Source of the DNA: Candidatus Omnitrophota bacterium
GTDB lineage: Bacteria > Omnitrophota > Gorgyraeia > Ghiorseimicrobiales > Ghiorseimicrobiaceae
Direction: 5' to 3'
DNA length: 64,000 bases
NCBI GenBank assembly: GCA_030681595.1
Contig: JAUXSB010000014.1
Coordinates: forward strand, 23,942 to 87,941
Position numbers and translations under genes: made by a program
The notes under the pieces: model-generated
Seen by the model: only the letters and a program-made list of their open reading frames with translations
The model's database searches: none
What the model was told of the DNA's origin: nothing
Shown: positions 42,844 to 63,250 of the stretch, in pieces
Layout of the letters: each line of letters opens with the position of its first letter
How positions within the stretch are numbered: the stretch's first letter is position 1

Positions 42844-42899
42844 GAAATAAAATTAATAGACATCAAAACTAGAAACCCATGTGAGTTTAAGTTAATCTT

Positions 42900-43505: not shown

Positions 43506-43580
43506 ATGTTTCTTAATTTTAGAGAGTAGGAACAAACACCTATTATTCAAAGTCAAGATTTAAGATAAAATAATAAAGTC

Positions 43581-44159: not shown

Positions 44160-44215
44160 CAAATCAATCCAGCGGAATTTGCCTCTGGCAAATCCGCTGA
44201 TTTCTGGTGTTATGC
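44154..44215 (+). other. attC-like recombination site 2
   Basis: ataacaaatcaatccagcggaatttgcc / ggcaaatccgctgatttctggtgttatgc imperfect inverted repeat, ATAAC...GTTAT cores. Confidence 0.45.
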
Positions 44216-44222
44216 TAAAAAA

Positions 44223-45146: not shown

Positions 45147-45157
45147 GTTTCATTAGT

Positions 45158-45997
45158 ATGAAATTCATTCTTGAGGTTCTTAATATATTCTGGTCCATTT
45201 GCTTAGCGATTATTGCAATAGTTGTATCGTTTCTTATCCCTAAGTCTAAAAAAAGAAAAGAAGTAGGAGTAGGACTCTCAATTTTTTCTTTTACGATTAA
45301 TTTTAGAAAAGATACCTATATAAGGGGGCTTCTGGTTCTTCTAGGAATTTCCTTTCTAGGATTTACATTTGTACGTGATTACTCTTCTTTTTTTCCAAAA
45401 CGGGTGTCATTTGAGATTTATTATGACTCAAATGGGTTGAAACAGGCCATAGAAAGTATAAGGCCGTTATTGGAAGATGGCATGAAGATTTCTCCAGATT
45501 GGGAAAACAAAAGGAGGGCATATTTCCAAGAACTTGATAAAATTATTAAGTCAAAAATACCGCAGTATGAACTATTCTTTTCATATGATCATGTTGAAGA
45601 TTATTTAGTGAGCAAAGGTAAAGCAGAACATGTTGTTGAGTTGTTTAGATTTTGGCAGCAATATAAGATCACCAAGGTCAATGGCTTGGTTCAACATCGG
45701 CTTCACCCGCCTGATATGAATCCGATTGAACTCGAAACCAGGTATAATCTTTTAGATAGACCGAAAAACTTAGTTTTACCCACTATAAGAGATTTCTTCA
45801 GGGGCAGAAAACTTGTTGCACCAACAATGGCACAATCTCTCATAATTCACACAGATAAGGTTTATGAGGCCGAAATTGTAGGACTTACGGAGGTCAGGTT
45901 TTTTCCGTATAATACTTTGGAAAAGACGATATTTTGCTTTAAATCGGAAGCGGGATTAGTTCCTTTTTCGTATACATTTTATAAAGAAGAAGAATAA
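45158..45997 (+). CDS. Integron cassette ORF: 2-TM membrane protein of unknown function (same cassette as the hydrolase)
   Basis: Two N-terminal hydrophobic helices; only 11 bp after the hydrolase stop with no intervening attC. Confidence 0.5.
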   Translation: MKFILEVLNIFWSICLAIIAIVVSFLIPKSKKRKEVGVGLSIFSFTINFRKDTYIRGLLVLLGISFLGFTFVRDYSSFFPKRVSFEIYYDSNGLKQAIESIRPLLEDGMKISPDWENKRRAYFQELDKIIKSKIPQYELFFSYDHVEDYLVSKGKAEHVVELFRFWQQYKITKVNGLVQHRLHPPDMNPIELETRYNLLDRPKNLVLPTIRDFFRGRKLVAPTMAQSLIIHTDKVYEAEIVGLTEVRFFPYNTLEKTIFCFKSEAGLVPFSYTFYKEEE

Positions 45998-46002
45998 AAA
46001 AA

Positions 46003-49300: not shown

Positions 49301-49613
49301 CCAGGCTGTCCTGAAAAGGCTCATAATAGGCAACCCTTGAGCCGTTTTTAACTTTCAGAAATGTCCTGAAGCCTTCAGATGCGGCAGACTGCCATGCCTG
49401 ATTCGCGGGAAGGAATTCCAGAATAGAATGATTTTTATCCTTGGTGCCGAAGCTGATTACGAGTTGCCCGCGGTTGACATAAAAAACCCACATCGGTATC
49501 CCGAAGAAACCGGCAATACCCGGGAAAAAGCTGGCAAACGGCTTCGCGGAATTATAATTTTCAATTACAAACTCACCGGTTTTATTATCAAGGTAATATT
49601 TTGGTTTTAACAT
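46386..49613 (-). CDS. Large (1075 aa) protein of unknown function, possibly carbohydrate-active
   Basis: Long uninterrupted ORF; Trp/Asp-rich segments (FWSDHWAYNLD, GNGNYRDMNQNRR) and an adjacent sugar kinase give only contextual hints. Confidence 0.55.
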   Translation of the reverse strand: MLKPKYYLDNKTGEFVIENYNSAKPFASFFPGIAGFFGIPMWVFYVNRGQLVISFGTKDKNHSILEFLPANQAWQSAASEGFRTFLKVKNGSRVAYYEPFQDSLDNLSFDLRRLMRIKSYELALEEINPLLGLKIDVRYFTLSGEPIAAIIRELKITNTGKKILEIEAVDGLPKITPYGTANFFLKDMSRTIEAWMRVDFLNNKIPFYNLYIDPADRPETFYIEGGNFYLPFCREGNKNKLLDAIVDPVCLFGQGDFSYPRNFINKEKFNPALSKQIKESRTPCAFSYFSSSIKPDEPKSIFSIVGYASGKEKLIPQIERILNNSFIQEKQQENANLIREIEDNIHTESAFGEFNLYAKQTFLDNVLRGGYPVSFSRAGKKSVFYLYSRKHGDLERDYNNFLLSPTYFSQGNGNYRDMNQNRRSDNWFNSDVAESNLVDFLNLIQTDGFNPLVIKGLSFSLEEKNRPELLNHIVDTKDRENLGQFFNKPFTPGSLAMLIEENNIGLDVDMPEFLKEALCLSARIEDAEHSEGFWSDHWAYNLDLIESYLALYPEKLKEIFVDKKIFSFFDNAEIVQPRDVKYVLTGANKVSQHHSLKKDPEKEELIRSRAHDAHRVRADFGKGDIIYVSLLTKLLCLFVNKLASLDAQGIGVEMEANKPNWFDSLNGLPALFGSSTNETFELKRLIIFIKDALKNSRAFQYEDMILPLEINNFLKNLGKLLEEYFASGSKERDFIFWDKAYALKEGYRANSRFGFSGKESGIKLAELFSILNAAERKISFGLSRAVDKKTGIYRAYFINEVVDYELYSGSVRVRKFKQEPLPFFLEAQVHALRLEKDTAKAASLYKAIRSSSLYDRKLKMYKVCAPLKEAPIEIGRCRVFTPGWLENESVWLHMEYKFLLELLRCGLYEEFYNDFFNCFIPFLDAKKYGRSILENSSFLASSAFCDDSLHGNGFVARLSGSTAEFISIWLAMNIGFNLFKLDKEGKLTLEFKPILHKKLFTKKKNYSFKFLNKTLVVYHNPKLRNTFGPKGVSVGMYIFEDDSGELITIKSGIITHPYAEKIRSGLIKKIDVYLV

Positions 49614-49641
49614 ATTTATCCTGTAACTACTGATTAATTAC

Positions 49642-50541
49642 CTAAAAGGCCAGAATATTTCTAAATTTATTCAGACGGGAATGAATATCTTTTTTTGTAA
49701 GCCGCGCTATCCTCTCGATGCCGAAACCTTCCACATTGAAAGAAGATAAGATTGTCCCATAAATAATCGCCTTTTTTAATGTTTTTCCGTTAATTTTTCC
49801 TGCCTGCGCCAGATACCCCATAAACCCGCCGGCAAAAGTATCGCCTGCCCCCGTAGGGTCAACTACGTGTTCAACCGGATATGCCGGATAAGAAAAGATA
49901 AATTTATCACAGTAAAATAAAACACCGTGCTCGCCTTTTTTTATGACAATAAAACGGGGGCCTAACCGACGTAATGCCCTTGCCGCCTTTATTAAGTTAT
50001 GCTCGCCGGACAAATCGCGCGCCTCCTGGTCATTGGCGACATAGATATCCACATCTTTTAATAACCTAACCAAGTCCTGGCGTTTATTATGTATCCAGTA
50101 ATTCATACTATCTAAACCGACAAGTTTAGGACGATGCATGCTTTTTAAAAGATGCATCTGTATCTCGGGGTCAACGTTGGCTAAAAAAACATTTTCAATT
50201 TTTTTCTGATGTTCGGGAATGGTGGGTTTAAAAATAGATAAAACTCCTAATTCAGTACTTAAGGTAAGGGCGGTATTTAAATCGCCTTTATATTCGCCTG
50301 ACCAACGGAATGTTTTACCGTTACCTTTAATTAATGAGGTAAGGATAATGCCTTTTTTATGCAGAAAATTGATATGTTTCCCCGGAAAGTCTTCTCCGAC
50401 GATCGCCACAAGGTTCACATCGGTAAAAAACCGCGCGGCAAGCGAAAAATGCGCGGCTGAGCCGCCTAATAAATTATGCCGCCGGCCTTCGGGCGTCTTT
50501 ACTGTATCGAGGGCAACCGTACCCAGAACGATTATGCTCAT
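49642..50541 (-). CDS. PfkB-family carbohydrate kinase
   Basis: C-terminal DPTGAGDTFAGGF motif and N-terminal GG substrate motif. Confidence 0.8.
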   Translation of the reverse strand: MSIIVLGTVALDTVKTPEGRRHNLLGGSAAHFSLAARFFTDVNLVAIVGEDFPGKHINFLHKKGIILTSLIKGNGKTFRWSGEYKGDLNTALTLSTELGVLSIFKPTIPEHQKKIENVFLANVDPEIQMHLLKSMHRPKLVGLDSMNYWIHNKRQDLVRLLKDVDIYVANDQEARDLSGEHNLIKAARALRRLGPRFIVIKKGEHGVLFYCDKFIFSYPAYPVEHVVDPTGAGDTFAGGFMGYLAQAGKINGKTLKKAIIYGTILSSFNVEGFGIERIARLTKKDIHSRLNKFRNILAF

Positions 50542-50670: not shown

Positions 50671-50898
50671 TTATAGCGCTTCGACTTGCTTTATCTCAGG
50701 GATTTCTTTTTTAAGCATCTTTTCTACGCCGTTTTTAAGCGTCATCTGACTCATCGGGCAACAACCGCAGGTGCCGGTAAGCTTTAAGCGTACGACATTA
50801 TCTTGTGTTACCTCAACCAACTGCACGTCTCCGCCATCCGCGGCAAGCATAGGACGGACCTTATCCAACGCTTTTTCTACCTTTGCTTTATCAATCAT
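50671..50898 (-). CDS. nfuA: NifU-like (Nfu) Fe-S cluster carrier domain protein
   Basis: LTGTCGCCPMS CxxC-type motif in a 75-aa protein. Confidence 0.8.
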   Translation of the reverse strand: MIDKAKVEKALDKVRPMLAADGGDVQLVEVTQDNVVRLKLTGTCGCCPMSQMTLKNGVEKMLKKEIPEIKQVEAL

Positions 50899-51527
50899 TT
50901 TGCCCTCCCGGTTATTTTAGATAGTAACCTATTATGCTTTAAACAAAACTTTCCGCTTTTCACTTGCGAATATATCAAATCTTCCTGCCAGTGGGCATTG
51001 TATAAGCGGCAACTTTTGGATTTACAGAATGGCTCGCCGCGCAAATAAAAGAACATCGCCTGCGCCGCTAATCCCTTTACCACTTCCAAAAGGCGCTTAT
51101 CGTTATAATCAATGAAACGGCCTTTTAATTTTTGCTTAAGCCTTGCCTCTTCCGGCTCCCAAAGTCCGCTGCCGGATAAACTCTGCTTTGCCAGATAATA
51201 TTCTCTCGGTTTTGCCGGCGCCTCAACTATGCCTGAAAGCGAAATTACCGAAGGATAACTAAAAACAGATGACCTTAGATGCATCTGCCTACCTTTGCCA
51301 TCGCCTGTGGCAAAAAGGCGCTTTGTAACAATTATAGCATACGCACCGGGCGTATCCCTAATTTTTTTCTGTGTTCCGATGACATCCAACAAGAGGCCGT
51401 TTGTTACAACTATATCTTTTGCTTTCTTAACAACTACGCTAACCTCAAATGTTTTTTCTAAGAAAGCCTTTATTTTTTTAAAATCCAGGGAACTATTTTC
51501 GTCATACAAATAAACTTTATTAATCAC
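50895..51527 (-). CDS. Hypothetical protein with C-terminal cysteine cluster
   Basis: 210 aa; CKSKSC ... CLKH cysteines; no family recognised; translationally coupled in the Thi4 operon. Confidence 0.4.
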   Translation of the reverse strand: MINKVYLYDENSSLDFKKIKAFLEKTFEVSVVVKKAKDIVVTNGLLLDVIGTQKKIRDTPGAYAIIVTKRLFATGDGKGRQMHLRSSVFSYPSVISLSGIVEAPAKPREYYLAKQSLSGSGLWEPEEARLKQKLKGRFIDYNDKRLLEVVKGLAAQAMFFYLRGEPFCKSKSCRLYNAHWQEDLIYSQVKSGKFCLKHNRLLSKITGRAK

Positions 51528-51538
51528 GAATTTATAAG

Positions 51539-52342
51539 CTATTTATTCTTTTTTAAAATCTCCAGCGCGACCTCTGCGGCTTTTTTACCGGACAAAAGCA
51601 TTGAGCCGAAAGTCGGCCCCATCCTTGGAAGCCCGTAGGTCGTGGAAACGCTCATACCGCAGACAATCAAGCCAGGGTGCGCTTCTTGTGTATATTCTAT
51701 GACCAAGTCTTCCGAACGCTCAACCCACATTGCGCCAAACCCGACTTTTTTCATGATACCGCGCTCTTCAAGCTTTGATACAACGCAAGCATCATGGCCG
51801 GTTGAATCAATAACCAGTTTTGACTCGATTGCCACCGGGTCAACACAGGTTATCTCGCGAGGCAAAGCTTTTACCGGCGTCCAGTTAATTACCACGCCTG
51901 CCACACGGTTATCTTCGCGTAAAACCACATCTTCGAAAATGGTCATATTGGCAAATTTTACCCCGGCATCACAGGCAGAGGCAATAAGCTTTGAACAGGC
52001 ATGCGGCCCTTCAGCGACATAAAGCCCCTTTGAATATTCTTTATGGGGTATACCCAATTCTTTTAAAACTTTTTCTGCCGGCGCCCTTACCGTCAACGTA
52101 TTCATTAAGTAGCCGCCAATCCAAAATCCGCCGCCTAAGTAGTTATTCCTCTCGATGATAAAAACCTTAACTCCGGCACGCGCCAAATTGCGGCCGCACA
52201 TAAGCCCGGAAGGCCCTGCGCCGATGATTACACAGTCAGAATCCACATAACTCTGGAATTGTTTAGAAAACTGATCTACAATTGCCCGTGTTACTTCCTT
52301 CTCTCCTACCTCAGCAAAAATCTTTTTATGTTTCTGTGCCAT
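51539..52342 (-). CDS. thi4: Thi4-family thiazole synthase
   Basis: FAD-binding [12 protein letters not shown] motif and Thi4-type core; 267 aa. Confidence 0.8.
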
Positions 52343-52445
52343 TTTATTTACCTCAATTATAATTGATTACACTGATTTTAAAAAGATTACACAGATTATC
52401 AATCGGTGTAATCATATTTGTAATCTGTGCAATCACAAGTTAATA

Positions 52446-52685
52446 TTACTCAATAATATCTCCTATTACCGGTTCAACCACTACTCCGGCTTTTTCCAAA
52501 AATTTAATTCCTTTCTGCAGGTTTTCCTCTTTACCGTCTAATTCCAAGACTATCTCGCCGATTTTATCGGTTACCCGCGCTCTTCTAATATTCGGCATCA
52601 CGTCAAATTTCTTCGCCATCTGAAAAGTCAAAGGCTGTTTTATGGTTTCGCCGGTAAAAGTAAGTTTTACGATTTTTTTAGCCAT
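52446..52685 (-). CDS. Stand-alone NIL-domain protein
   Basis: VKLTFTGETIKQPL...FDVMPNIRRARV...GEIVLELDG...VVVEPVIG parallels the NIL domain at the C-terminus of MetN. Confidence 0.7.
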   Translation of the reverse strand: MAKKIVKLTFTGETIKQPLTFQMAKKFDVMPNIRRARVTDKIGEIVLELDGKEENLQKGIKFLEKAGVVVEPVIGDIIE

Positions 52686-52934
52686 TATTTATCCTTTCAA
52701 TGAGCGCATAACTTACGAATACACAGTATGAGTAAGTTATTTGCGCGAATTGATGCCGAAAGCTACGGGAAAATTTAGTATAAATTTTCGCAGTGTTTTG
52801 CTTTCGGCGCAATGCATAACTTACGAATACACAGTATGAGTAAGTTATTTGCGCGAATTAATCCCGATAGCTACAAGAAAATTTAGTATAAATTTTCGCA
52901 GTGTTTTGCTATCGGGGCCAATTAAATATTCCTG
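52686..52934 (-). promoter_or_regulatory. Two tandem copies of a two-hairpin leader module immediately upstream of the NIL gene start
   Basis: Each copy: hairpin ataacttac-N15-gtaagttat, then GC-clamped stem (gccgaaagc/gctttcggc in copy 1, cccgatagc/gctatcggg in copy 2) enclosing AT palindrome gaaaatttagtataaattttc; ends in the Shine-Dalgarno context of the gene. Confidence 0.55.
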
Positions 52935-53750
52935 TTATTCCATCTCTTCTTTTATCTGACAAGCCTGCTGTTCATAATCTACTAACTTAGTAATCGTAGG
53001 GTGATCCGAGCAAACCGCGCAGTCATTATCTTTGGGCACCTTGACTGTGCGAAAAGTTGAGGTAAGCGCGTCAAAGATAAGCAGCCTCCCTGTTAATAAT
53101 TCCCCGATACCCAAGATAAATTTTAAAACCTCATTTGCCTGCAATACCCCCAGGATACCGGCTACCGCGCCCAATATACCCCCTTCCTGGCAAGAAGGCA
53201 CTGCTCCCGGAGGGGGCGGTTCAGGGAAAAGGCAACGATAACACGGCCCGGCCTTCGGTAATATAGTCATAATCTGGCCGTCAAACCTGAAAATTCCCGC
53301 ATGCACAAGCGGCTTTTTAGTCATCACGCAGGCATCGTTTACCAAAAAACGGGTAGGAAAATTATCGGTTCCGTCTACGACTATATCATAATTTTTAAGT
53401 AAAGCTAAAATATTTTCTGAATTTATCCTAAGGTTATAAGCATCAACTTTTACATCCGGGTTAAGCTCGGAAAGCCGCCTTCTGCCTGATTCTGCCTTAG
53501 GCATCCCCACACTAGGAGTGCTATGAATAATCTGGCGTTGCAAATTATTCACTTCAACTTTATCGGAATCCACCAAACCAATCCTACCTACGCCAGCCGC
53601 CGCCAAATAAAGGGCGCTTGGAGCGCCTAAACCGCCTGTGCCGATAATCAGCACTTTAGCATTTAAGAGTTTCTCCTGCCCCTTTCCGCCCACTTGCGGA
53701 AGGATAATCTGGCGTGAGTAGCGCTCAATCTGTAAATCATTTAAACTCAT
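52935..53750 (-). CDS. ThiF/MoeB-family E1-like adenylyltransferase
   Basis: GTGGLGAP nucleotide-binding motif, zinc-binding CYRC and CAVC pairs; no rhodanese domain. Confidence 0.85.
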   Translation of the reverse strand: MSLNDLQIERYSRQIILPQVGGKGQEKLLNAKVLIIGTGGLGAPSALYLAAAGVGRIGLVDSDKVEVNNLQRQIIHSTPSVGMPKAESGRRRLSELNPDVKVDAYNLRINSENILALLKNYDIVVDGTDNFPTRFLVNDACVMTKKPLVHAGIFRFDGQIMTILPKAGPCYRCLFPEPPPPGAVPSCQEGGILGAVAGILGVLQANEVLKFILGIGELLTGRLLIFDALTSTFRTVKVPKDNDCAVCSDHPTITKLVDYEQQACQIKEEME

Positions 53751-54031
53751 TATTCTGAACCTCCGGCTATAGCAGGGATAATTGATACTTCATCATTATT
53801 TTTCAATTCTGTGTCATATCCTTTTAAAAAACGGATATCTTCGTTGTTGACATAAAAGTTAATGAAACGGCGGATTTTACCGTTTTCGTCGCAAATCCTT
53901 GCTTTTACCCCGGGGAAACGTTTTTCCAGATCATCCACCAGTTCATTAATATTACCTGCTTCAACTTCTACCTCTACCTTATTCTGCGTCAATTTCTGCA
54001 GGGGTGCCGGGATTCTCACTTTTATAGACAT
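53750..54031 (-). CDS. ThiS/MoaD-like sulfur-carrier protein with 2-residue extension beyond Gly-Gly (..IAGGSE)
   Basis: 93-aa protein ending AGG-SE; stop overlaps the ThiF/MoeB start. Confidence 0.65.
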   Translation of the reverse strand: MSIKVRIPAPLQKLTQNKVEVEVEAGNINELVDDLEKRFPGVKARICDENGKIRRFINFYVNNEDIRFLKGYDTELKNNDEVSIIPAIAGGSE

Positions 54032-54268
54032 ATTTTTATCCTTTCAATGAGCGCATAACTTACGAATACACAGTATGAGTAAGTTATTTGCGCGAATTGA
54101 TGCCGAAAGCTACGAGAAAATTTACAATAAATTTTCGAGCGTTTTGCTTTCGGCGCAATGCATAACTTACGAATACACAGTATGAGTAAGTTATTTGCGC
54201 GAATTGATGCCAAAGCCTACGCAATCCCGAAATTTCAGGACAAGCGTTTAGGCAAGGGGCGCTACCAT
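54032..54268 (-). promoter_or_regulatory. Leader module (one full copy plus a partial second copy) immediately upstream of the sulfur-carrier gene
   Basis: Same ataacttac/gtaagttat hairpin and gccgaaagc/gctttcggc stem around palindrome gaaaatttacaataaattttc. Confidence 0.55.
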
Positions 54269-55522
54269 TTAAATTGAATAATGATCGGCCGTCGGACGCT
54301 TCTTTTGTTCTTCTTCAAAAGAACCTAAACTCGGCTTTATTTTTAACGGCTTTGCCAACTTATCGGCCACCACTTCCTGCGTTTTTAAACCGTTTCCGGT
54401 AATACATATTACGATTGACTCATCCTTTGGGATACGCTTCTCTTTTATAAACTTTATCGTTGCCGCAACCGTAACTCCTCCGGCAGTCTCAGTAAATATG
54501 CCTTCGGTCTCAGCCAATAATTTAATCGCATTAATAATTTCGTCATCGCTTGCCGCCTCTGCCCAGCCGCCGGACTTTTTCACTACATCATAGGCATAAA
54601 AACCGTCAGCAGGATTTCCTATGGCTAAAGACTTGGCGATTGTTTTTGGCTTAACCGGCTTAATGATTTCATTATCTTCTTTTATCGCGGTAACTATAGG
54701 AGCGCAGCCCTCGCCTTGCGCCACATAAAGTTTTGTTTTAAATTCAGGAATTAAGCCTAATTGATAAAATTCCTGCAGCGATTTTTTAATTTTGGTAACC
54801 AGAGAACCTCCTGCCGCAGGCACAATTATATGCTTAGGCGCGCGCCATCCTAATTGCTCGGCAATCTCAAAACCGTAGGTCTTTGAACCTTCGGCATAAT
54901 ATGGGCGTATGTTGATATTTACAAATGCCCACTTATATTTAGCGGCAATCTCGGAACACAGGCGGTTTACTTCGTCATAATTCCCTTCAACCTTTACTAG
55001 CACCGGATTATAAATTGATGAGGCGATAATTTTGCCTTGCTCTAAATCCGCCGGGATAAAAATAAAAGCGCGCAGCCCCGCGATAGCGGCATTTGCCGCA
55101 ACAGAATTAGCCAAATTTCCTGTTGAGGCACAGGCAACCGTGCGGAAACCGAATTCTTTAGCCTTTGAAAGAGCAACCGCCACAACCCGGTCTTTAAAAG
55201 AAAGGGTGGGATGATTTACCGAATCATCTTTTATGTAAAGCTCTTTTACGCCTAAAACTTTAGCTAAATTATGCGACCGGACGAGCGGAGTAAATCCGGT
55301 TGTTAAGCCATCACTCGGCTCTTTAGAAAGCGGCAATAACTCCTTATACCTCCACATATTCTTGGGGCGTTTCTCTATTTCCTGGCGCGTAAGCACCTTT
55401 TTAATCTTATCGTAATCATAAGCTACTTCTATTGAACCAAAACAATACTCGCAGACAAATAATATATTTGCCGGGTATTCCCGCCCGCATTCGCGGCATT
55501 TTAGGCCTTTTACGTAAGACAT
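54269..55522 (-). CDS. Threonine synthase-family PLP enzyme with N-terminal zinc ribbon (function in this context uncertain)
   Basis: CRECG...CEYC ribbon; PLP-lysine motif PTLSFKDR; 417 aa. Confidence 0.75.
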   Translation of the reverse strand: MSYVKGLKCRECGREYPANILFVCEYCFGSIEVAYDYDKIKKVLTRQEIEKRPKNMWRYKELLPLSKEPSDGLTTGFTPLVRSHNLAKVLGVKELYIKDDSVNHPTLSFKDRVVAVALSKAKEFGFRTVACASTGNLANSVAANAAIAGLRAFIFIPADLEQGKIIASSIYNPVLVKVEGNYDEVNRLCSEIAAKYKWAFVNINIRPYYAEGSKTYGFEIAEQLGWRAPKHIIVPAAGGSLVTKIKKSLQEFYQLGLIPEFKTKLYVAQGEGCAPIVTAIKEDNEIIKPVKPKTIAKSLAIGNPADGFYAYDVVKKSGGWAEAASDDEIINAIKLLAETEGIFTETAGGVTVAATIKFIKEKRIPKDESIVICITGNGLKTQEVVADKLAKPLKIKPSLGSFEEEQKKRPTADHYSI

Positions 55523-55526
55523 ATCC

Positions 55527-57869
55527 TTACCCTTTCTTAATCAGAATCCTGTAAAACTTACCTTCTTGTTTTACGCTTAATACCTGGTGGCCGTCATTCT
55601 TTAGGCTCTCAGGCACATTCCTTATCGGCTCCCCTTCGTCAAGAATTACCTCTAATATATCACCGGTATCTAAATCTTCCAAGGCCAGCTTCGCCTTGAT
55701 ATAATTTATCGGACAAGGGGTGCCTTTTAAATCCATAATTCGCTTTGGCGCCTCATTATTTTTTAAAGAAGGTTTTGATTCACCTGCGCAATTAGGGAAA
55801 CTAAACGATGGATCCATGCTTTTATATAGCTCATTTATATGAGCAGTAAACTTCCCGGCATAAAGGAATTTCTCTTTTTTCTGTTCCGCATTAAGCTTAT
55901 CATTTATAGCCTTAAAAACATTTTCTATATCGGCATATTCGTCTGAAGCGATTTTTGCATCAACAAATTTTTTCTTAAACTCCGATACCGCATCCTCCGG
56001 ATTATATGGATCTACGCCCTTGACTATTAAAAGGGCGCGGGAGGCGCTAAAAAATGCCTTCTTTATTTTTTCAATATCATAAGATTTTTTTTCTGCCTCC
56101 TCTATCGCAATCTTAGCATCGGCTAAATCCGCCTCAATCATATCAATAACCCCGGCGCCACATTCGCCTGTACCCAGGCCGGATAAAGAAAAATCATCTT
56201 CTCTGCCCCAGTCAACATAAAAATTACGGCCTTCTAAATAAGACGGCATATAGGCATGCCTGGCCAAAAGTTCCTTGGCAATGACTACCGCCTCAGCCTC
56301 CAGGAATTCATAAATATCAATGCTTTCCCGGAATTTTTCTTCCACCTTATTTAAGAATTCTTCTAAAAAAAGCGGGGCATTTTTTGCCGCAATCATACCC
56401 GCCTCTTTGGCCAAAGCCGTCTTCTCCGCTTCCCTTCTGCCGCCCAAAAGTACTTTGTAAAATGGCACCGGGCGGTTATCTACTCTCTTTGCCGCGCCAA
56501 CAAAAGAAATCTTGCCTATGGGATGCTGACCGCAGGAATTAGGGCAACCGTTTAATTTTATATCCAGCCTCTTAAATACCTCTTTACCGATAAAGCGTGC
56601 CTTAATCATTTCTTCTATCTTGCGGGAAAGCGCCGGTGAATTACATAAACCCAGGTTACAGGTTGTCGCTCCCTTACAGACAGTTACGTCCAGAAGCGTA
56701 TCGGGATATAAAAAATCCTGTAAAATATTTTTTATTTTTAGAAAAATATCAAAGAGGCAGCTATTCTCAACCCAAGCGATAGCAATATCCTGGCTCTGCA
56801 GGGCGCGGAATTCGATATCCTTAAAATCGCCTTCTAAGCCGGCAAGTGCTGCCAGTTCTTCTGCTTTAATATCGCCCTGCGGGATACGCAGTAGAATACA
56901 GGAGTACCCTTTTTGGCGCTGAGGCCTTATATTATACCTCAAAAAATCCCTGTATTGCTTATCTTCTTTTACGGGGATTTCTGAATTTATCTCTTGCATG
57001 GAAAACGCCTGTATATCTTTTAACGCGATATGCTCTGCGTCTTTAACCGCCTTAAACTCGCTTAAATATAATTTTTTAAATTCATCTAGCCCCATTTTTT
57101 CAACCAGAAACCGCAAGCGGTTGTGATGCCGGTCTTTTCTGTCGCCGTTTTTGTAAAAAACATTTTTTAAAGCAGTTACGCAATAACCTAATTCGCTCTC
57201 GGGGATGAATTCTTCCAAAAGCTTCCCTATCCGCGAGCTTGCCCCCAAGCCTCCGCCGACAAAAATTTTAAAACCTTTTTTCCCGCCACGGATATCAGCA
57301 AGTAAGCCGACGTCATTTATCAATATGCCGCTGCAATCTTTAACGCATCCTGAAAACGTAATTTTAAACTTGCGCGGCAGCATAAAAGAACTTTCCTGCC
57401 GTAAAAAATATTCGGTCAGGGCAATGGCATTGGCCCTTACATCAAATACCTCATCTTTACATATTCCGCTAAATGGGCAAGCAGTAATATTCCTCAAAGT
57501 ATTTCCTCCTCCGCCGCGCGGCGAAAGGCCGTAGTCTTGCAGGTAATCAATAACTTTAAACGTATCTTCTAATTTTATATTGTGTATCTGAATATCCTGC
57601 CGTGTCGTTATGTGCAAGCGCCCGTCGCCGTATTTTTTAGCCGCCTCTGCTAATGCCTTTAACTGCGCGGTATTAACTGCGCCGGCAGGGATTCGTATCC
57701 GGCTCATAAATGCTTTTCCCCCGCGGTGCGAATATACACCCCATGGCACACGCACGCCCTTAAAACGCGCATCAGGAATTTTATCTGCTAAAAATTCCTC
57801 CAGGGAACGCCGGTAATTTTCCGCATCCTTTTTTACTTCTTCCGGTAAATTAAATAAATTATAATTCAA
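55527..57869 (-). CDS. Siroheme/[4Fe-4S] sulfite (or nitrite) reductase fused to a C-terminal TusA-like domain
   Basis: Two reductase half-domains with CxxxxC and NGCPNSC cysteine motifs; C-terminal about 70 aa ([35 protein letters not shown]...) has the TusA/SirA-like two-layered fold signature. Confidence 0.75.
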
Positions 57870-58788
57870 AGTACTGCTCCATACTGAAATAGCGCTCGCC
57901 CGTATCGGGAAATACCGTAACTACTTTTTTCCCTTTGCCTAATGCGCCTGCCACTTTTAATGCCGCCCAACAGGCAGCGCCGCTGGATATACCCACAAAC
58001 AACGACTCTTCCTTACATAATCTTTTAGAGGTAAAGAAAGCATCATTATCGCTGACTTGAATGATTTCGTCAATAATTTCCCTGTTTAAGACTTTGGGGA
58101 TAAACCCTGCGCCTATGCCTTGTATCTTATGCGGGCCGGGCTTTCCACCGGATAAAACCGGCGAATTTACCGGCTCAACCGCTACAATCTTAACCCGCGG
58201 ATTTTTCTCTTTTAGTACCTCGCCTACGCCTGTGATTGTGCCGCCAGTACCAACGCCGGAAACAAAGGCATCTATCTTTCCGCCTGCCTCTTCTAAAATT
58301 TCAAGCGCGGTCGTACGGCGGTGCACCTCGGGGTTTGCCGGATTATTAAACTGCTGAGGCATAAAGGCACCGGGAGTATTACACACTAACTCTTCGGCAT
58401 ACCTTACTGCCCCGCTCATTCCTTCGATTCCGGGAGTCAAAACTATCTCCGCACCGTAGGATTTTAAAATATGCCTCCTCTCTAAACTCATTGTTTCAGG
58501 CATGGTTAAAATTACCTTATACCCCTTAACCGCTCCGATCATACTTAAGCCGATACCGGTATTTCCACTGGTAGGCTCAATAATAACCGACCCGGGCTTA
58601 AGCAAGCCTTTCTTTTCGGCATCTTCAACCATGGCAAGGCAAATCCTGTCTTTGACCGAGCCGCCGGGATTGGCAGATTCAAGTTTTGCAAAAATTTCTG
58701 CCGAATTAACCTCCGGCATCTTTCTTAATTTTACTAAAGGGGTATTTCCGATTAACTGCGCAACACTTTCTACAGTTATTCTAGGCAT
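57859..58788 (-). CDS. cysM: Cysteine synthase (CysM/CysK family, PLP-dependent)
   Basis: SVKDR PLP-lysine motif, GTGGT motif; probable start MPRITVES, 4 nt after the carrier stop. Confidence 0.85.
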
Positions 58789-58792
58789 AGCC

Positions 58793-59026
58793 TCACCTCT
58801 TAAAATAAAAATTCCGGCGGATTGAGCCACCACCCATAAAATAGACAAACTCTAACCTGTCGCCTTCTTTTATTGCCACTGAGCCGTAATCTTTTCTTTC
58901 TATGATATTGTCGTTTAATTCTATTGTCACTACTTCCGGACGGATGTTTTTACGTTTTAATAACTCCGCAATACTTATATTTTTATCCAGCACCTCTTTT
59001 TTGCCGTTAATGGTAATATCTGCCAT
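58793..59026 (-). CDS. ThiS/MoaD/CysO-like sulfur-carrier protein with about 10-residue extension after Gly-Gly (..[15 protein letters not shown])
   Basis: 77-aa beta-grasp-sized protein; lies between JAMM and CysM as in the mec-cysO-cysM arrangement. Confidence 0.6.
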
Positions 59027-59038
59027 GTTTTTCTCCCT

Positions 59039-59482
59039 TTAATTCCTGATACTTACCTCGGTTACATTATTTTCTGCGATTCTAAACGCGCGGATTTGCG
59101 GGTTAAATTTATCCGCCAGAGATACTATAACATAAAAACTTTCCGGATAAAATGCTAATTCCAGATCCTTTGCCGAAGGATATGCCGGGCTTTCCGTATG
59201 CGAATGATAAATCGCCACCAAATCCAATTCTTGCGCCCGGAGTTCCTTAAAAATCTTTAGCTGCTCCTTGGGATCTATAAGGTAGCAGAATTCCGGCTTA
59301 TCTGAAATATTTACTAAAGGATAAACCGAGGCTGCCTTAGCGGCCTTGCCTGCCAAAATCCCGCAGGCCTCTTTGGGGTAATTTTTTTGGCAGTCAGCAA
59401 TTATCTTATCCTGAATATCTTTTGCGATAAAAATCTTCTCTATTTTATTATTCATATGCCGTGCTGGCTCCTTCGCCAACAA
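59039..59482 (-). CDS. JAMM/MPN+ metalloprotease (Mec-like)
   Basis: E...HSHTESPAYPSAKD matches the JAMM zinc motif (HxH-x7-S-xx-D). Confidence 0.8.
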   Translation of the reverse strand: MLAKEPARHMNNKIEKIFIAKDIQDKIIADCQKNYPKEACGILAGKAAKAASVYPLVNISDKPEFCYLIDPKEQLKIFKELRAQELDLVAIYHSHTESPAYPSAKDLELAFYPESFYVIVSLADKFNPQIRAFRIAENNVTEVSIRN

Positions 59483-59551
59483 ATAATCAGTGTAATCTTT
59501 TTTCTGCCGGAGGCGGATCCGCCTTTGGCAGAAATCTGTGTAATCGCTTTT

Positions 59552-60487
59552 TTACGCCTCAAAATACTGTTGCACTGAAAAATACCTCTCTCCCGTATCC
59601 GGAAATATTGTTAATACGGTTTTATTCTTGCCTAATTCATTAGCGATAGAGAGTGCTGCAAATCCTGCCGCCCCCGCGGATATGCCGACAAACAAACCTT
59701 CTCTTTTAGCCAATTGTTTGGCGGTATTAAAGGCATCGCTATCAGAAACCGGGATTATCTTATCAATAATTTTGGTATTAAGGATATCCGGCACAAACCC
59801 CACGCCGATACCCTGTATCTTATGCGGGCCTGCCTTATGCCCCGATAATACAGCGCAGGTTTTAGGCTCAACCGCAACTATTTTAATCTCCGGATTATAC
59901 TTTTTCAAAATTTCGCCTACCCCGGTAATAGTTCCTCCGGTACCAACACCAGCAACAAAGGCATCTAAATTACCGCGGGTAACTTTCAATATTTCTTCCG
60001 CGGTTGTCTTGCGGTGTATTTCTGGATTAGCGGAATTTTTAAATTGTTGCGGCATAAAGCTATTATCGGTTTTCCTCAATAACTCTTCTGCCTTATCAAT
60101 CGCCCCCTGCATCCCCTTAAAATTAGGCGTCAATACTACCTCAGCGTCATATGACTTAAGGATATAGACTCTTTCTAAGCTCATCGCCTCCGGCATAACA
60201 ATGATACAACGATAGCCTCTTACCGCGCAAATCATCGCTAGGCCTATTCCGGTATTACCGCTGGTTGGCTCAATAATAGTATGGCCGGGCTTAAGCAGGC
60301 CTTTCTTTTCGGCATCCTCAATCATCGAAAGGCAAACCCTGTCCTTTACGCTCCCGCCGGGATTAAACATCTCTAACTTTGCCAAAACTAAAGCCGAATC
60401 TTTTCCTGTGATATGGTTTAACTTTACTACAGGCGTATTATAGATTAATTCCGTAATATCGTTGGCAACTCTATCTGAAAACGGCAT
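59552..60487 (-). CDS. cysK: Cysteine synthase (CysK/CysM family), second copy
   Basis: SVKDR and GTGGT motifs; clearly homologous to 57859..58788. Confidence 0.85.
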   Translation of the reverse strand: MPFSDRVANDITELIYNTPVVKLNHITGKDSALVLAKLEMFNPGGSVKDRVCLSMIEDAEKKGLLKPGHTIIEPTSGNTGIGLAMICAVRGYRCIIVMPEAMSLERVYILKSYDAEVVLTPNFKGMQGAIDKAEELLRKTDNSFMPQQFKNSANPEIHRKTTAEEILKVTRGNLDAFVAGVGTGGTITGVGEILKKYNPEIKIVAVEPKTCAVLSGHKAGPHKIQGIGVGFVPDILNTKIIDKIIPVSDSDAFNTAKQLAKREGLFVGISAGAAGFAALSIANELGKNKTVLTIFPDTGERYFSVQQYFEA

Positions 60488-60503
60488 GGCTATCCTCCTA
60501 AAC

Positions 60504-61472
60504 CTATCGTTTAAATACTAATAATAAAAAATAAGAAAGTAAAACTGACAATAAAGGCGTAATCGCCCAAACAAAAAATGTCTTTTTGGTTATGTGGCTA
60601 CCTAATGTGTGGCGATGGCCATTTTTTAAACAACTAATCGCGAAAATCGCGGCAAGGTTTAACTGCACCAGCGACTGAGGAATTCCTAAAAAAGAAGCAA
60701 AAATAAGCAGGGTTGCCGTAACAAAAGAAACCAAGGTGCTTGAGACCAATCCCAACGGCACAATCTCTTTACCTGCGGTTTCAAGCGGCCCCTTTCCTAA
60801 AATACCGGCACCCACACCAAATAAAGGCGAAATCAAAAACAACCCCAAGTTTACGCTTATAAGCCCCGCGCCAAATAACGGCCCAACCGCGTTCGCCACA
60901 TTATTTGAACCAATAGCAAAAGCAACATAACAACTTGCCACTAAACTAGCTAACCTTATCTTTTTTTCATTAGAAAATATCTTCTGATAAATATGCAAGT
61001 TATCATGCTCAGGCGGATAAATATTCCTATATAATAAAAAAGTTAAGATATAAGAAGCTAGGGGCAAAATAACCCACATCGGTAGTATCTTTACAGACAA
61101 AGTAGCAAGATTAAGATGTTTAAAATATAGCCCCGCGCCGACAATAGCGCCTACTGTAACCTGGCTCGTGGACTGAGGAATCTTTAAAATATTAGCCAGA
61201 AAAAGGCTTAAAGCCGCAGAAATAAGAACTATTAAAGCTACATCAAAACTTATAAATTCGCTGGGTATTAAATTCTTGCCTAAAGTCAGAGAAACATTCC
61301 TGCCCAACAGAGAAGCGCCCAAAATAACAAAAATCCCAAATAAAATCAGGGCCTTATTTTTTCTTATTAATTTTCCGCCGTAAGCCGCCGCAAAAGAGGG
61401 TGCGATACCGCTGCCTCCCATATTTACGGCAAAAAATATTACAACTAGGATTAAAATAAGAGTTCCAGCCAA
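60504..61472 (-). CDS. PiT-family inorganic anion permease (candidate sulfate permease)
   Basis: Multi-TM protein with duplicated G(S/A)N(N/D)VANA-type motifs (NMGGSGIAPSFAAA; AIGSNNVANAVGPL). Confidence 0.7.
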   Translation of the reverse strand: MAGTLILILVVIFFAVNMGGSGIAPSFAAAYGGKLIRKNKALILFGIFVILGASLLGRNVSLTLGKNLIPSEFISFDVALIVLISAALSLFLANILKIPQSTSQVTVGAIVGAGLYFKHLNLATLSVKILPMWVILPLASYILTFLLYRNIYPPEHDNLHIYQKIFSNEKKIRLASLVASCYVAFAIGSNNVANAVGPLFGAGLISVNLGLFLISPLFGVGAGILGKGPLETAGKEIVPLGLVSSTLVSFVTATLLIFASFLGIPQSLVQLNLAAIFAISCLKNGHRHTLGSHITKKTFFVWAITPLLSVLLSYFLLLVFKR

Positions 61473-61487
61473 TTTATTCTCTCCTGG

Positions 61488-62213
61488 TTAAATTCCCGCG
61501 CCCTGGGTGTTTGTCTTAAGCGGCCGGGTGTGTATGCCGCATTCGCCACCGCATTTTGAAGTGCCTATCCAGCGGCCGGAACGCTCGTTTTCATCGCTTG
61601 AAATATGTGTGCATGGTGCGCATCCCAATGAACGGTATCCCGCCGCGTAAAGCGGGTTAACAAGGACTTGATATAAAGCCAAGTACTGCCAAACTTCGCG
61701 CTCTTTCCAGATTAATATAGGATTAAGCTTAACTAACCCCTTATCCCTTTCCTCCACTTCCTTATAGTCAGTGCGGGTCCTGCCTTCGGTGCAGCGTAGC
61801 CCCGTTACCCAACATGTTACATGCATTTCTTCTACAGCACGCTTTACCGGCTCAACCTTAAGTATATCGCAGCATTTATCCGGATCGGTTTTATAAAGGT
61901 CATTTGAAATTTGGGCATGGCTTTCATAAACTTTTAATTCCGGATAACGGGCCACGGCTTCATGCATAAACTTTTTGGTCTCCGCCGGCTTAAATCTGGT
62001 AGTAACAATAAACCCCTTTATCTTCGGGTTTACCTTTTTGGCTAAATCCCAGACTGCTACCGAATCCTTACCTAAACTGTTTGCTACGACTAAACCATCC
62101 TTATACTTTTTATAAGCCTCTTCGATAAGCGCAAGCGACCTATCTACTTTCTCTTTAAAGTTTAGCTTCTCCACCAATTCCTTTAAATCATCCTTGTTGT
62201 TTAATAAACTCAT
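61488..62213 (-). CDS. cysH: APS/PAPS reductase-family protein (with CC...CxxC cysteine signature)
   Basis: PP-loop-like SLGKDS, C-terminal ECGIH motif, Cys pairs (KCC, CAPC); probable start MSLLNNK, since the ORF-track N-terminus runs through the leader repeat. Confidence 0.8.
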   Translation of the reverse strand: MSLLNNKDDLKELVEKLNFKEKVDRSLALIEEAYKKYKDGLVVANSLGKDSVAVWDLAKKVNPKIKGFIVTTRFKPAETKKFMHEAVARYPELKVYESHAQISNDLYKTDPDKCCDILKVEPVKRAVEEMHVTCWVTGLRCTEGRTRTDYKEVEERDKGLVKLNPILIWKEREVWQYLALYQVLVNPLYAAGYRSLGCAPCTHISSDENERSGRWIGTSKCGGECGIHTRPLKTNTQGAGI

Positions 62214-62370
62214 TTTACTTTTCCTTTCAATGAGCGCATAACTTACGAATACAGAGTATGAGTAAGTTATTTGCGCGAATTGATGCCGAAAGCTACGAGA
62301 AAATTTACAATAAATTTTCGAGCGTTTTGCTTTCGGCGCAATGCATAATCCCGAAGCTTCGGGATTACAG
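62214..62370 (-). promoter_or_regulatory. Leader module upstream of cysH, followed by the atcccgaagcttcgggat palindrome
   Basis: Same two-hairpin architecture and Shine-Dalgarno context as at 52686 and 54032. Confidence 0.55.
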
Positions 62371-62452
62371 AGGTACGCAAAACTAATGGAATTTCGTATG
62401 CGAAGAGGTTCCATTGGCTTTACGTTTCTCAATAGTATAGGCGAACACGCAT

Positions 62453-62893
62453 TTAAACTGCGTACACCAACCTTTGTTTAGCTGATTTCACCTTGCTGAC
62501 CAAATCTTCGAAAGTCACATTATCCACTATTTCTGTGGCACTTTCTGCCACATCCCTCCAGATCTTCCTGAAGACACATCTATATAAATCCTTGCAATTA
62601 GAATATCCGCTTCCAACACAAGCGATAGGCTCGATTGGGCCGTCAATATACCTAACCACCTCTCCTAGTTTTATGCGTGAAGGGTGCTTAGCTAACAGGT
62701 ATCCGCCAATTTTCCCGCGCCGGCTTTCCACAAAACCGCCTTTTTTTAACTCTAATAGTATCTGCTCTAAAAACTTAACCGGTATATCTAACCTTTTAGC
62801 CAAATCATGAATAGCAATAACGCCGTTACCGTAATGTATAGACAGATCCAATATTGTTTTTAAGGCGTAATCGCCTTTATAAGTGATTTTCAT
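62453..62893 (-). CDS. Rrf2-family transcriptional regulator (CymR/IscR-like)
   Basis: N-terminal wHTH typical of Rrf2 (YALKTILDLS...); heads the sulfur cluster. Confidence 0.85.
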   Translation of the reverse strand: MKITYKGDYALKTILDLSIHYGNGVIAIHDLAKRLDIPVKFLEQILLELKKGGFVESRRGKIGGYLLAKHPSRIKLGEVVRYIDGPIEPIACVGSGYSNCKDLYRCVFRKIWRDVAESATEIVDNVTFEDLVSKVKSAKQRLVYAV

Positions 62894-62924
62894 CGTATTC
62901 CTATAATCTCTATTAGATTAGTAT

Positions 62925-62952
62925 AGTATACAATAAAAAAATATTTTGTCAA
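62925..62952 (-). promoter_or_regulatory. Sigma-70-type promoter candidate for the Rrf2 gene (TTGACA, 16-nt spacer, TATACT)
   Basis: Minus strand reads cgcTTGACAaaatatttttttattgTATACT about 30 nt upstream of the Rrf2 start. Confidence 0.45.
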
Positions 62953-63250
62953 GCGAAAAATGCAAACTTGCCGCGCCCGACCCGCCTGACTTCATTCGGG
63001 CAGGCTGAATGTCGTTCGGGCGGGCGCTTATTTTTCGCGCGATGCCCCGCCACAAAGCCCGCCACTAAAACATCAGCGGGTTCGCCTAAGATTTGTGGCG
63101 AACGTTGGCGGGCAGGCGCAAATACTTTAAATGAAACCATAAGTTATGGAAGCCTAAAGGCGACATAACTTATTTGGTTGAATTTATCCCGATACTTGCA
63201 AGAAAATTTAGAATAAATTTTCGCGGTGTTTTAGTATCGGGGCGCGGCGC
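62940..63250. repeat. Composite intergenic repeat (GC-rich palindromic units plus two-hairpin module), second copy of the 30890..31250 element
   Basis: Long stretches identical to 30900..31190; module stem cccgatact/agtatcggg around palindrome aaaatttagaataaatttt. Confidence 0.7.

Follow-up and report, generated by a model that had tools for sequence, protein, structure and literature searches.

Fifteen co-oriented genes span positions 50671-62893 on the minus strand of a 64,000-nucleotide stretch from a Candidatus Omnitrophota bacterium (assembly GCA_030681595.1, contig JAUXSB010000014.1; the whole stretch is referred to below as the window). The genes, delimited from the open reading frame (ORF) listing and from profile searches, are separated by short gaps or by none, and bring together sulfate uptake and reduction, two small sulfur carrier proteins with an activating enzyme, and several enzymes that may draw on these carriers. 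The question raised by the locus is whether it is an operon in which sulfur is handed to biosynthetic enzymes as protein-bound thiocarboxylate, or an ordinary set of co-regulated sulfur genes. The evidence set out below leads us to think that the locus is probably one co-oriented sulfur-assimilation operon of this bacterium. From the upstream end, the genes are:

62453-62893, minus strand: Rrf2-family regulator, first gene of the cluster (PF02082, 123 bits)
61488-62213, minus strand: CysH, Fe-S-type assimilatory reductase of adenosine 5'-phosphosulfate (APS) or 3'-phosphoadenosine 5'-phosphosulfate (PAPS) (PF01507, 136.7 bits; NF002537, 171 bits, cutoff 154)
60504-61472, minus strand: PiT/PHO4-family permease, probable CysP-type sulfate permease (PF01384, 144 bits)
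59552-60487, minus strand: CysK copy a, O-acetylserine sulfhydrylase type (TIGR01139 cysK, 438.6 bits, cutoff 351)
59039-59455, minus strand: JAMM/MPN+ metalloprotease (PF14464, 88 bits), HxHx7Sx2D motif intact
58793-59026, minus strand: ThiS-family sulfur carrier, 77 residues (TIGR01683 thiS, 69.6 bits, cutoff 37.5)
57859-58788, minus strand: CysK copy b (TIGR01139, 461.5 bits), beginning 4 nucleotides past the ThiS-like gene
55527-57869, minus strand: siroheme sulfite reductase (ferredoxin-type) with helical linker and TusA domain, 780 residues (PF01077, PF03460, PF01206)
54269-55522, minus strand: ThrC-like pyridoxal 5'-phosphate enzyme, 417 residues (PF00291, 231 bits; TIGR00260 thrC, 290 bits)
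53750-54031, minus strand: MoaD/CysO-family sulfur carrier, 93 residues (TIGR01687 above cutoff; CysO matches in the PDB)
52935-53750, minus strand: ThiF/MoeB-type E1, 271 residues (PF00899, 293.6 bits, residues 11-245)
52446-52685, minus strand: stand-alone NIL-domain protein, 79 residues (PF09383, 65 bits)
51539-52342, minus strand: Thi4 thiazole synthase (PF01946, 235 bits), Cys166 at the active-site position
50895-51527, minus strand: DUF6775 protein (PF20565, 193 bits)
50671-50898, minus strand: Nfu-type Fe-S cluster carrier with CxxC (PF01106, 101.5 bits)

Gene order and sulfur carriers

All of the genes named in a first-pass annotation of this locus were located in the cluster by ORF and profile annotation; its list lacked the TusA domain of the sulfite reductase, the DUF6775 gene and the intergenic repeats. 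The same annotation had described the locus as centred on sulfur carriers and tied to sulfate reduction, a view that is borne out by gene fusions of ThiS to CysK and of MoaD to E1, and by the residues that extend beyond the Gly-Gly end of the carriers.

Relatives of the locus were collected by scanning one genome per species with the alignment of the sulfite reductase-TusA protein as query, which gave 580 confirmed relatives, and the fifteen window proteins were placed on 95 loci by tblastn; this map is the source of most of the locus counts given here. The sulfite reductase of the window itself has a 100% identical match in an NCBI protein from a metagenome-assembled Candidatus Omnitrophota genome. 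The best 80 of the 580 loci come from Omnitrophota, Elusimicrobiota, Nitrospirota, Verrucomicrobiota, Kiritimatiellia, Planctomycetota, Halanaerobiales and others, and the TusA part is present in almost all of them. The gene order of the window is found again in Omnitrophota, Elusimicrobiota and Margulisiibacteriota, and since the same order occurs in dozens of genomes, the arrangement is not a chance one. Two layouts are seen. The Omnitrophota-type layout begins with Rrf2, CysH, an optional transporter, JAMM, ThiS, CysK and sulfite reductase-TusA, and continues with the ThrC-like gene, MoaD, E1 and NIL, sometimes followed by Thi4, DUF6775 and Nfu; one relative (L041) has the full set minus CysP and CysK copy a. 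The simpler layout, present in 20 loci, consists of ThiS, E1, JAMM and sulfite reductase-TusA, often with CysK next. In a close relative (L083), whose reductase is 89% identical to that of the window, the gene order is identical and the intergenic space is almost nil, which makes expression as one transcript plausible.

The two carriers of the window have no detectable sequence similarity in a pairwise comparison. The ThiS-like carrier ends in ...FMGGG followed by a 10-residue extension; it passes the thiS equivalog model, matches ThiS 2k5p in the PDB at 55 bits, and in structure matches ThiS only. The MoaD-like carrier ends in ...AIAGG followed by Ser-Glu, and its full-length PDB matches are to the CysO-type protein 4n6e_B (75.6 bits) and to Mycobacterium tuberculosis CysO 3dwg_C (62.8 bits). 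Most related carriers have such an extension, 0 to about 20 residues long: in orthologues of the ThiS-like protein the GGG is followed by 0-20 residues or by an in-frame fusion to CysK, and in those of the MoaD-like protein the GG is followed by 0-15 residues or by a fusion to E1. These motifs, like the gene identities, the conserved order and the fusions themselves, are direct observations.

The in-frame fusion of ThiS to CysK, in which ...FMGGG runs directly into MPFSDR..., is found in nine loci (L002, L010, L012, L016, L018, L024, L025, L029 and L063), and three more loci (L087, L088 and L095) have fused gene calls of ThiS with a PALP enzyme. MoaD is fused to E1 in three loci (L018, L020 and L023), and ThiS to E1 in one (L069). 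The ThiS::CysK and MoaD::E1 fusions are the strongest evidence that CysK and E1 work directly with the carriers; taken together with the residues behind the Gly-Gly, they imply that a protease must release the Gly-Gly end. The predicted dependence of the cluster on its carriers is thus well supported by the sequences.

The JAMM protein, whose HxHx7Sx2D motif was read off the translation, matches 2kks and P. furiosus JAMM1 5lda best in the PDB, and its gene immediately precedes ThiS in 17 loci. The protein is predicted to trim the C-termini of the carriers and to hydrolyse carrier-amino-acid adducts. The E1 has no rhodanese domain, and its match to the MoeZ model (392 positions) is confined to positions 18-279; it is the only E1 of the cluster, and a second E1 occupies the position of CysK copy a in two relatives (L015 and L025). 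The two ThiS/MoaD-like carriers, the ThiF/MoeB E1 and the JAMM protease proposed in the first-pass annotation are therefore all confirmed, by the thiS and CysO matches, PF00899 and PF14464, respectively.

Sulfide production and the predicted branches

In CysH, the motifs CC...CxxC and ECGIH, characteristic of Fe-S APS reductases, can be read off the translation. Comparison with L083 sets its true start at the ATG at 62213, the longer ORF from a TTG codon crossing an intergenic repeat. The permease matches the 'sulfate permease' model NF053884 at 252 bits, under the cutoff of 400. In the sulfite reductase, the Cys-X5-Cys...Cys-X3-Cys motif is intact, and C398, C404, C442, C446 and C719 are invariant among 13 homologues. 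The C-terminus of this protein is a TusA domain (PF01206, 70.7 bits) with Cys719 in a CPxNY motif; in the model of the reductase-TusA protein (predicted local distance difference test score, pLDDT, 79.5), the TusA part has a template modelling (TM) score of 0.84 to E. coli TusA. In relatives, the TusA domain is always part of the reductase or encoded next to it. Between the sulfite reductase core and TusA lies a linker of about 120 residues (approximately 568-684; window 55815-56165). An invariant GxGECGxG motif marks its start, and the model confidently shows a helical bundle. This linker, for which Pfam, PDB sequence search and Foldseek gave no credible match, is an undescribed domain.

The first-pass annotation had credited the locus with the whole route from sulfate to sulfide, which does not hold: neither Sat nor CysDN nor CysC was found in the 64-kb window, in a scan of nearly all ORFs of at least 100 residues. 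With no Sat found in the window, the route is incomplete here; in a Firestonebacteria relative, Sat lies inside the cluster.

In two Omnitrophota relatives (L011, 6566-8802; L094, 1-3228), genes for tetrapyrrole (siroheme precursor) synthesis are inserted between JAMM and ThiS. They encode ALAD and a class-III aminotransferase, probably HemL, and in L094 also TP_methylase/HEM4.

An operon with the same general composition, HcyS-HcyD-HcyF-MetY-Sir of Wolinella succinogenes, is reportedly the characterised example of a carrier-dependent operon, in work said to be by Krishnamoorthy and Begley from 2011. The wider group was defined as class 4e by Iyer, Burroughs and Aravind (2006), with a ThiS/MoaD-like carrier, a JAB protease, an E1 that is always rhodanese-less and an obligatory SirA/TusA, accompanied by PAPS reductase, sulfite reductase and transporters. 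The window resembles class 4e and the Wolinella operon in its carrier with a post-Gly-Gly extension, JAMM, rhodanese-less E1 and SirA/TusA, and in the presence of genes for PAPS/APS reductase, sulfite reductase and sulfate transport; an E1 without rhodanese, together with a TusA that is fused or adjoining, fits the rule given for the class. It differs in that its terminal enzymes are CysK and a ThrC-like protein rather than O-acetylhomoserine sulfhydrylase, that it has two unrelated carriers, that TusA is fused to the reductase, that neither the cluster nor the scanned ORFs of the window gave an ATP sulfurylase, an APS kinase or an O-acetylhomoserine sulfhydrylase, and that Thi4, DUF6775, Nfu and NIL are added. 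The locus is thus a new combination of modules each of which has already been described. To call it uncharacterised, as was done initially, overstates the case, given the operon class of Iyer et al. (2006) and the precedents for the component pathways; what is new is the combination.

The two CysK copies are 67% identical. Both pass the cysK equivalog model (439 bits for copy a and 462 for copy b, cutoff 351) and both fail the cysM model (300 and 325 bits, cutoff 394). Copy b has Geobacillus CysK 2egu as its best PDB match and matches M. tuberculosis CysK1 2q3b at 376 bits; the PDB entries that we take to be M. tuberculosis CysM lie outside the best 60 PDB matches of CysK. Copy a is an extra copy that is missing in several relatives, and ThiS and CysK are neighbours in 26 loci. 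Copy b is predicted, from this proximity and the fusions, to be a client of the ThiS-like thiocarboxylate.

The biochemistry of a cysteine pathway of this kind, with CysO, CysM and Mec of M. tuberculosis, is said to have been worked out by Burns et al. in 2005. The order of JAMM, carrier and sulfhydrylase is common to the window and to mec-cysO-cysM, as would be the underlying logic, with a thiocarboxylate acting as nucleophile and a JAMM protein then carrying out the hydrolysis, and here too a JAMM with an intact site lies upstream of the carrier. The analogy with mec-cysO-cysM, drawn in the first-pass annotation, extends to this order and logic and no further, because the sulfhydrylase here is of the CysK type and the carrier beside it is of the ThiS family, not the CysO family; the E1 also has no rhodanese domain. 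Similarly, the two CysK/M paralogs are indeed two copies, but neither is of the CysM type. The CysO homologue of the window is the other carrier, which by homology belongs to the ThrC-like branch.

The ThrC-like enzyme has an N-terminal CxxC...CxxC zinc ribbon. In the PDB it matches true ThrCs best, with scores of only 169-198 bits, and no MetM model is among its NCBIfam matches. In 23 loci its gene immediately precedes that of the MoaD-like carrier; the order ThrC-like, carrier, E1 is found in 21 loci from at least three phyla, and in 20 loci these genes and NIL are contiguous. By analogy, the enzyme is predicted to be a homocysteine synthase of the MetM type that uses the CysO-like thiocarboxylate. 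In Streptomyces albulus, in the pathway of Hasebe et al. (2024), the threonine-synthase homologue MetM converts O-phosphohomoserine to homocysteine, with MetO, a carrier matured by Mec and charged by MoeZ and encoded next to metM, as the thiocarboxylate donor. It is gene context that links the ThrC-like branch to this pathway: in both, a ThrC homologue is encoded beside a small carrier, here of the CysO family, and the window cluster contains a Gly-Gly carrier with extra residues, a JAMM protein and an E1. The E1 here, however, is without rhodanese, a domain that TusA on the reductase may replace, an Rfam search gave no S-adenosylmethionine (SAM) riboswitch here, and the module has NIL as a constant fourth member. 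The suggestion in the first-pass annotation that this second branch feeds homocysteine or thiazole synthesis agrees with the MetM/MetO pathway and with the published clustering of Thi4 with ThiS/ThiF and DUF6775.

Homologues of the NIL protein form 825 clusters at E <= 1e-5; the 120 listed are 66-100% identical, with a length of 79 residues in nearly all, and 21 homologues aligned from several phyla share 66-84% identity with the window protein. Cys is absent, and the PNIRR motif and the C-terminal Glu are invariant. The model (pLDDT 89.5) has a beta-alpha-beta-beta-alpha-beta fold, with its best match in the methionine-binding C2 domain of MetN at a TM score (TMq) of 0.79-0.85; the profile matches MetN at E 1.6e-6, and N32, the Asn of the NIL motif, is aligned to MetN N295, a residue involved in methionine binding. 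The model shows residues 73-79 as flexible (block pLDDT 68), although G75, I77 and E79 are invariant in 22 homologues. The gene follows sulfite reductase-TusA in Firestonebacteria and the ThrC-like gene in a Dehalococcoidales contig. In the literature searched, no paper was found that links the NIL domain to these genes, and the protein is an undescribed, highly conserved component. Our guess is that it may be a ligand-sensing accessory of the homocysteine module, with a methionine-like ligand. A role as sulfur carrier was considered and rejected: the protein has no Cys and no Gly-Gly end, and in GapMind MetO is the Mec-processed carrier.

A NIL domain is also part of the DUF39 (HcyBio)/NIL-ferredoxin pathway, which makes homocysteine in methanogens and Desulfovibrio. 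The window has the NIL domain in common with it, and also the product, homocysteine, which is only predicted here; its NIL protein has no ferredoxin, no HcyBio is found in the scanned ORFs of the window, and the partners of NIL are instead the ThrC-like enzyme, carrier and E1. The Omnitrophota-type layout is also present on a Margulisiibacteriota contig, with TusA as a separate gene and a DUF39 and NIL-ferredoxin pair adjoining. In the Margulisiibacteriota loci L087/L088 (9141-12177), the carrier cluster lies beside Rrf2, a PALP enzyme, DUF39 (HcyBio) and NIL-ferredoxin, so that two different non-canonical homocysteine systems are apparently adjacent. The NIL domain of the L087 NIL-ferredoxin, beside the DUF39 gene, is 40% identical to the window protein.

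In the alignment of Thi4, the window protein has ITC-VDP, with Cys166, where methanococcal Thi4s have GLH-IDP. Since catalytic (sulfide-using) Thi4s have His where the suicide type has Cys, the window Thi4 is of the Cys ('suicide') type, and the NCBIfam label 'sulfide-dependent ADP-thiazole synthase' is misleading here. The active-site Cys is kept in all nine Thi4 homologues of related loci. DUF6775 is an archaemetzincin-like family, of which the window copy has CX4C...CxxH and no HExxH. Its gene comes immediately after Thi4 in each of the eight related loci that show both genes, and the order Thi4-DUF6775-Nfu is found in five loci; that it serves as a Thi4 accessory is a guess. No ThiG was found among the scanned ORFs of the 64-kb window.

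The neighbourhoods of more than 400 Cys-type Thi4s were surveyed by Oliveira-Filho et al. (bioRxiv 10.1101/2025.09.23.678117, posted 2025 and revised 2026), who found DUF6775 to be the commonest neighbour, followed by ThiF, CysK, ThiS, NifS, CysI and NifU, and an Omnitrophica Thi4 to complement an E. coli thiG mutant better with thiF and thiS. The window resembles these clusters in the active-site Cys, in DUF6775 immediately downstream followed by a NifU-type gene, and in the ThiS/ThiF-type genes and sulfite reductase no more than ten genes away. It differs in its ThrC-like gene, NIL and TusA, which that study does not mention, and in that the Thi4 block is here the tail of a sulfate-assimilation operon.

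Regulation, intergenic repeats and the rest of the window

The Rrf2 protein, encoded directly upstream of CysH in 16 loci, probably controls the operon. It scores above the cutoff of TIGR00738 and under those of the IscR, CymR and NsrR equivalogs, and has C92, C100 and C106, which we take to be the positions of Fe-S cluster binding in IscR/NsrR. The only strong sigma-70-like promoter precedes the Rrf2 gene (TTGACA-16-TATACT, 62952-62925) and is kept in L083. Just downstream of its -10 element, a palindrome, TAATCT-AATAG-AGATTA (62905-62925, identical in L083 at 95-115), is a candidate autoregulatory Rrf2 site. This TAATCT-N5-AGATTA palindrome has a GATTA half-site in common with a second motif, GATTACACNGATT, six of whose seven matches in the window are inside the cluster (0.33 expected for the whole window) and which is kept upstream of JAMM in L083 (3300-3339). 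The motif is a candidate operator for internal promoters. The motif copies, which have no strand assigned, and the copies of a hairpin repeat of about 108 nucleotides are located as follows:

52365-52434, no strand: motif GATTACACNGATT, four copies in the spacer between NIL and Thi4, with a larger palindrome over a promoter-like site at 52402-52375
59485-59545, no strand: motif GATTACACNGATT, two copies upstream of JAMM
52689-52926, minus strand: hairpin repeat, two tandem copies between the E1 and NIL genes
54036-54220 (two copies), 62219-62348 and 63166-63243, also 31139-31159: other copies of the hairpin repeat

The hairpin repeat occupies three intergenic gaps of the cluster, before the cysH, MoaD-like and NIL genes, a placement from which co-regulation was first suspected; it also gives rise to a spurious ORF of 63 residues and makes CysH look longer at its N-terminus than it is. 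The idea of a riboswitch or Rrf2 operator common to the blocks was rejected, because the repeat has no match in Rfam 15, even at E <= 1, is missing from L083 at all three cluster positions, and has unrelated genes downstream of it elsewhere. Neither inspection by eye nor a scan gave a convincing sigma-70 promoter within it. We treat it as a generic intergenic repeat, outside the conserved design of the cluster.

The hairpin itself forms the first half of the repeat and has a sequence-conserved core, GAAAATTTA-NNN-TAAATTTTC, inside an outer stem that covaries between copies (CCCGATAGC/GCTATCGGG, GCCGAAAGC/GCTTTCGGC and CCTGACAGT/ACTGTCAGG). In 30 aligned copies, 7 of the 19 pairs are compensatory, and none of 500 shuffles reaches the observed scores. 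An exact-pattern scan found the hairpin in 38 metagenome contigs (L096-L133), about 30 of them with the full architecture, upstream of unrelated genes; these are, judging from their N-termini, presumably genes for ribosomal proteins L24 and L29, acyl carrier protein and RibH. The hairpin may be an undescribed leader element of Omnitrophota, or one resembling repetitive extragenic palindromes or bacterial interspersed mosaic elements (REP/BIME-like). A larger composite of about 300 nucleotides, made up of the hairpin element, a second hairpin and a GC-rich segment of about 170 nucleotides, is present at 62950-63243 and 30900-31190, immediately upstream of the operon-leading Rrf2 gene and of mraZ, respectively; the copies are nearly identical except for two indels. 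The Rrf2 promoter takes its -35 element, TTGACA, from the 3' end of the composite, whose GC-rich part is partly conserved in L083.

Outside the cluster, a c-di-GMP-I riboswitch (2050-2188, minus strand, 67 bits) lies upstream of a small protein (1336-1794) whose N-terminus has the methylation motif of type IV pilins. Behind a tRNA gene at 41131-41205 come a tyrosine-recombinase/integrase gene (41358-42668) and then, up to 46000, plus-strand genes of low GC content (0.35), three of four without a Pfam match; the region 41131-46000 is probably a small integrated element. In the window and in relative L082 alike, Nfu is followed by a PfkB-family kinase and a protein of 1075 residues (46386-50541), the latter with a weak match to GH149 (beta-1,3-glucan phosphorylase; 117 bits, cutoff 1150).

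Proposed scheme, alternatives and meaning

The scheme that we favour would start with uptake of sulfate by the CysP-type permease. APS would come from an enzyme encoded elsewhere and be reduced by CysH to sulfite, which the siroheme sulfite reductase would convert to sulfide. The single rhodanese-less E1 would adenylate the C-terminal glycine of both unrelated carriers, and the adenylates would be turned into thiocarboxylates by sulfide itself or by sulfur that the reductase's own TusA domain passes on. The ThiS-type carrier would then serve the adjoining CysK in making cysteine, and the CysO-type carrier the ThrC-like enzyme, acting as a MetM-type enzyme on O-phosphohomoserine to give homocysteine; the CysO-type carrier might also supply the downstream Cys-type Thi4 for thiazole. 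One JAMM protein would mature and recycle both carriers, first stripping the residues behind the Gly-Gly and later freeing the amino acid. Nfu would provide Fe-S clusters, and DUF6775 and NIL might act as accessories, the former of Thi4 and the latter, as a ligand-binding protein, of the homocysteine module. The individual reactions, and the assignment of carriers to enzymes, we infer. The overall scheme, from sulfate reduction through two charged carriers to CysK, a MetM-like enzyme and possibly Thi4, is in our judgement likely to be correct, and each individual pairing of carrier and enzyme is less certain than the whole.

A stricter version can be put forward tentatively, as possible rather than probable. 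Sulfur would pass in a closed relay that largely avoids free sulfide, from TusA through one E1 and two carriers to cysteine, homocysteine and thiazole, and NIL, whose identity between phyla is still about 66-75%, would be a hitherto unrecognised, obligatory fourth component of MetM/MetO, for example a methionine/homocysteine sensor gating the E1 or the ThrC-like enzyme.

Several observations weigh against the favoured scheme. The hairpin repeats divide the cluster into at least four blocks in this genome and, together with the candidate internal promoter and operator sites, mean that expression as a single transcript is not assured. Sat, CysDN and CysC are missing from the scanned ORFs. A single E1 would have to serve two dissimilar carriers, where some relatives have two E1s. 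Both CysK copies resemble ordinary sulfide-using CysK and could take free sulfide, the ThrC-like enzyme passes the NCBI threonine synthase model and could make threonine, and the roles given to NIL and DUF6775 are guesses.

Some of these points return in the alternative that survives best, an ordinary co-regulated sulfur regulon in which CysK and Thi4 use free sulfide, the ThrC-like protein is a threonine synthase, and the carriers and E1 serve thiamin, molybdopterin or 2-thiouridine synthesis. The CysK copies do pass the cysK equivalog, with sulfide-using enzymes as their nearest characterised relatives; the ThrC-like protein passes TIGR00260 and the ThiS-like carrier the thiS equivalog; and the carrier/E1 pair scores on the models of SAMP1 and UbaA, proteins of archaeal tRNA thiolation and molybdopterin synthesis. 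An ordinary regulon does not, however, lead one to expect in-frame ThiS::CysK fusions in nine relatives, or MoaD::E1 beside the ThrC-like gene. ThiG, MoaE and tRNA thiolases did not turn up in the cluster or elsewhere among the scanned ORFs of the window, extensions behind the Gly-Gly and a dedicated JAMM are foreign to classical ThiS/MoaD operons, and the ThrC-like protein belongs to a clade with an extra zinc ribbon and reaches only 169-198 bits against solved ThrCs. On balance, this alternative is unlikely.

Considerably less probable is that the carriers, E1 and JAMM form a protein-conjugation system, like SAMPylation or Thermus TtuB, that regulates the sulfur enzymes. The resemblance is seen in the profile scores of the MoaD-like carrier on SAMP1 (58.2 bits, cutoff 60), of the E1 on the SAMP-activating UbaA (333 bits, cutoff 450) and of the JAMM on desampylase (91 bits, cutoff 130), all of which stay under the curated cutoffs. 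The genes conserved around them encode biosynthetic clients (CysK, ThrC-like and Thi4) and a sulfide source with TusA, and carrier-enzyme fusions suit substrate channelling better than regulation. Known dual-function systems carry sulfur too, so that conjugation would add to carrier-dependent biosynthesis and not replace it. Slightly weaker still is the possibility that the CysO-type carrier and E1 act mainly for Thi4, as sulfur donor or in dehydroalanine repair, with the ThrC-like and NIL genes as mere neighbours: a block of carrier, E1, Thi4, DUF6775 and NifU without a ThrC-like gene in one relative (L089) and the Hanson-lab survey with its E. coli complementation (10.1101/2025.09.23.678117) agree with it, but NIL is directly followed by Thi4 in only six loci, some contigs ending earlier, against 20 with ThrC-like, carrier, E1 and NIL, and the homocysteine and Thi4 uses are compatible.

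The general logic of carrier-dependent sulfur transfer has been known since 2005-2011, and the advance would be incremental. The natural ThiS::CysK and MoaD::E1 fusions are direct material for testing the pairing of carriers with clients and the processing by JAMM. If the favoured scheme, carrier-dependent synthesis from one operon, is true, the NIL protein becomes a concrete accessory candidate for the MetM/MetO pathway. The prediction of auxotrophy in bacteria with small genomes would also be affected, as annotation pipelines would label the ThrC-like enzyme 'threonine synthase' and overlook methionine synthesis. Omnitrophota and neighbouring uncultured phyla would then make cysteine, homocysteine and perhaps thiazole from protein-bound thiocarboxylates instead of free sulfide, with the genes for all of this in one operon.

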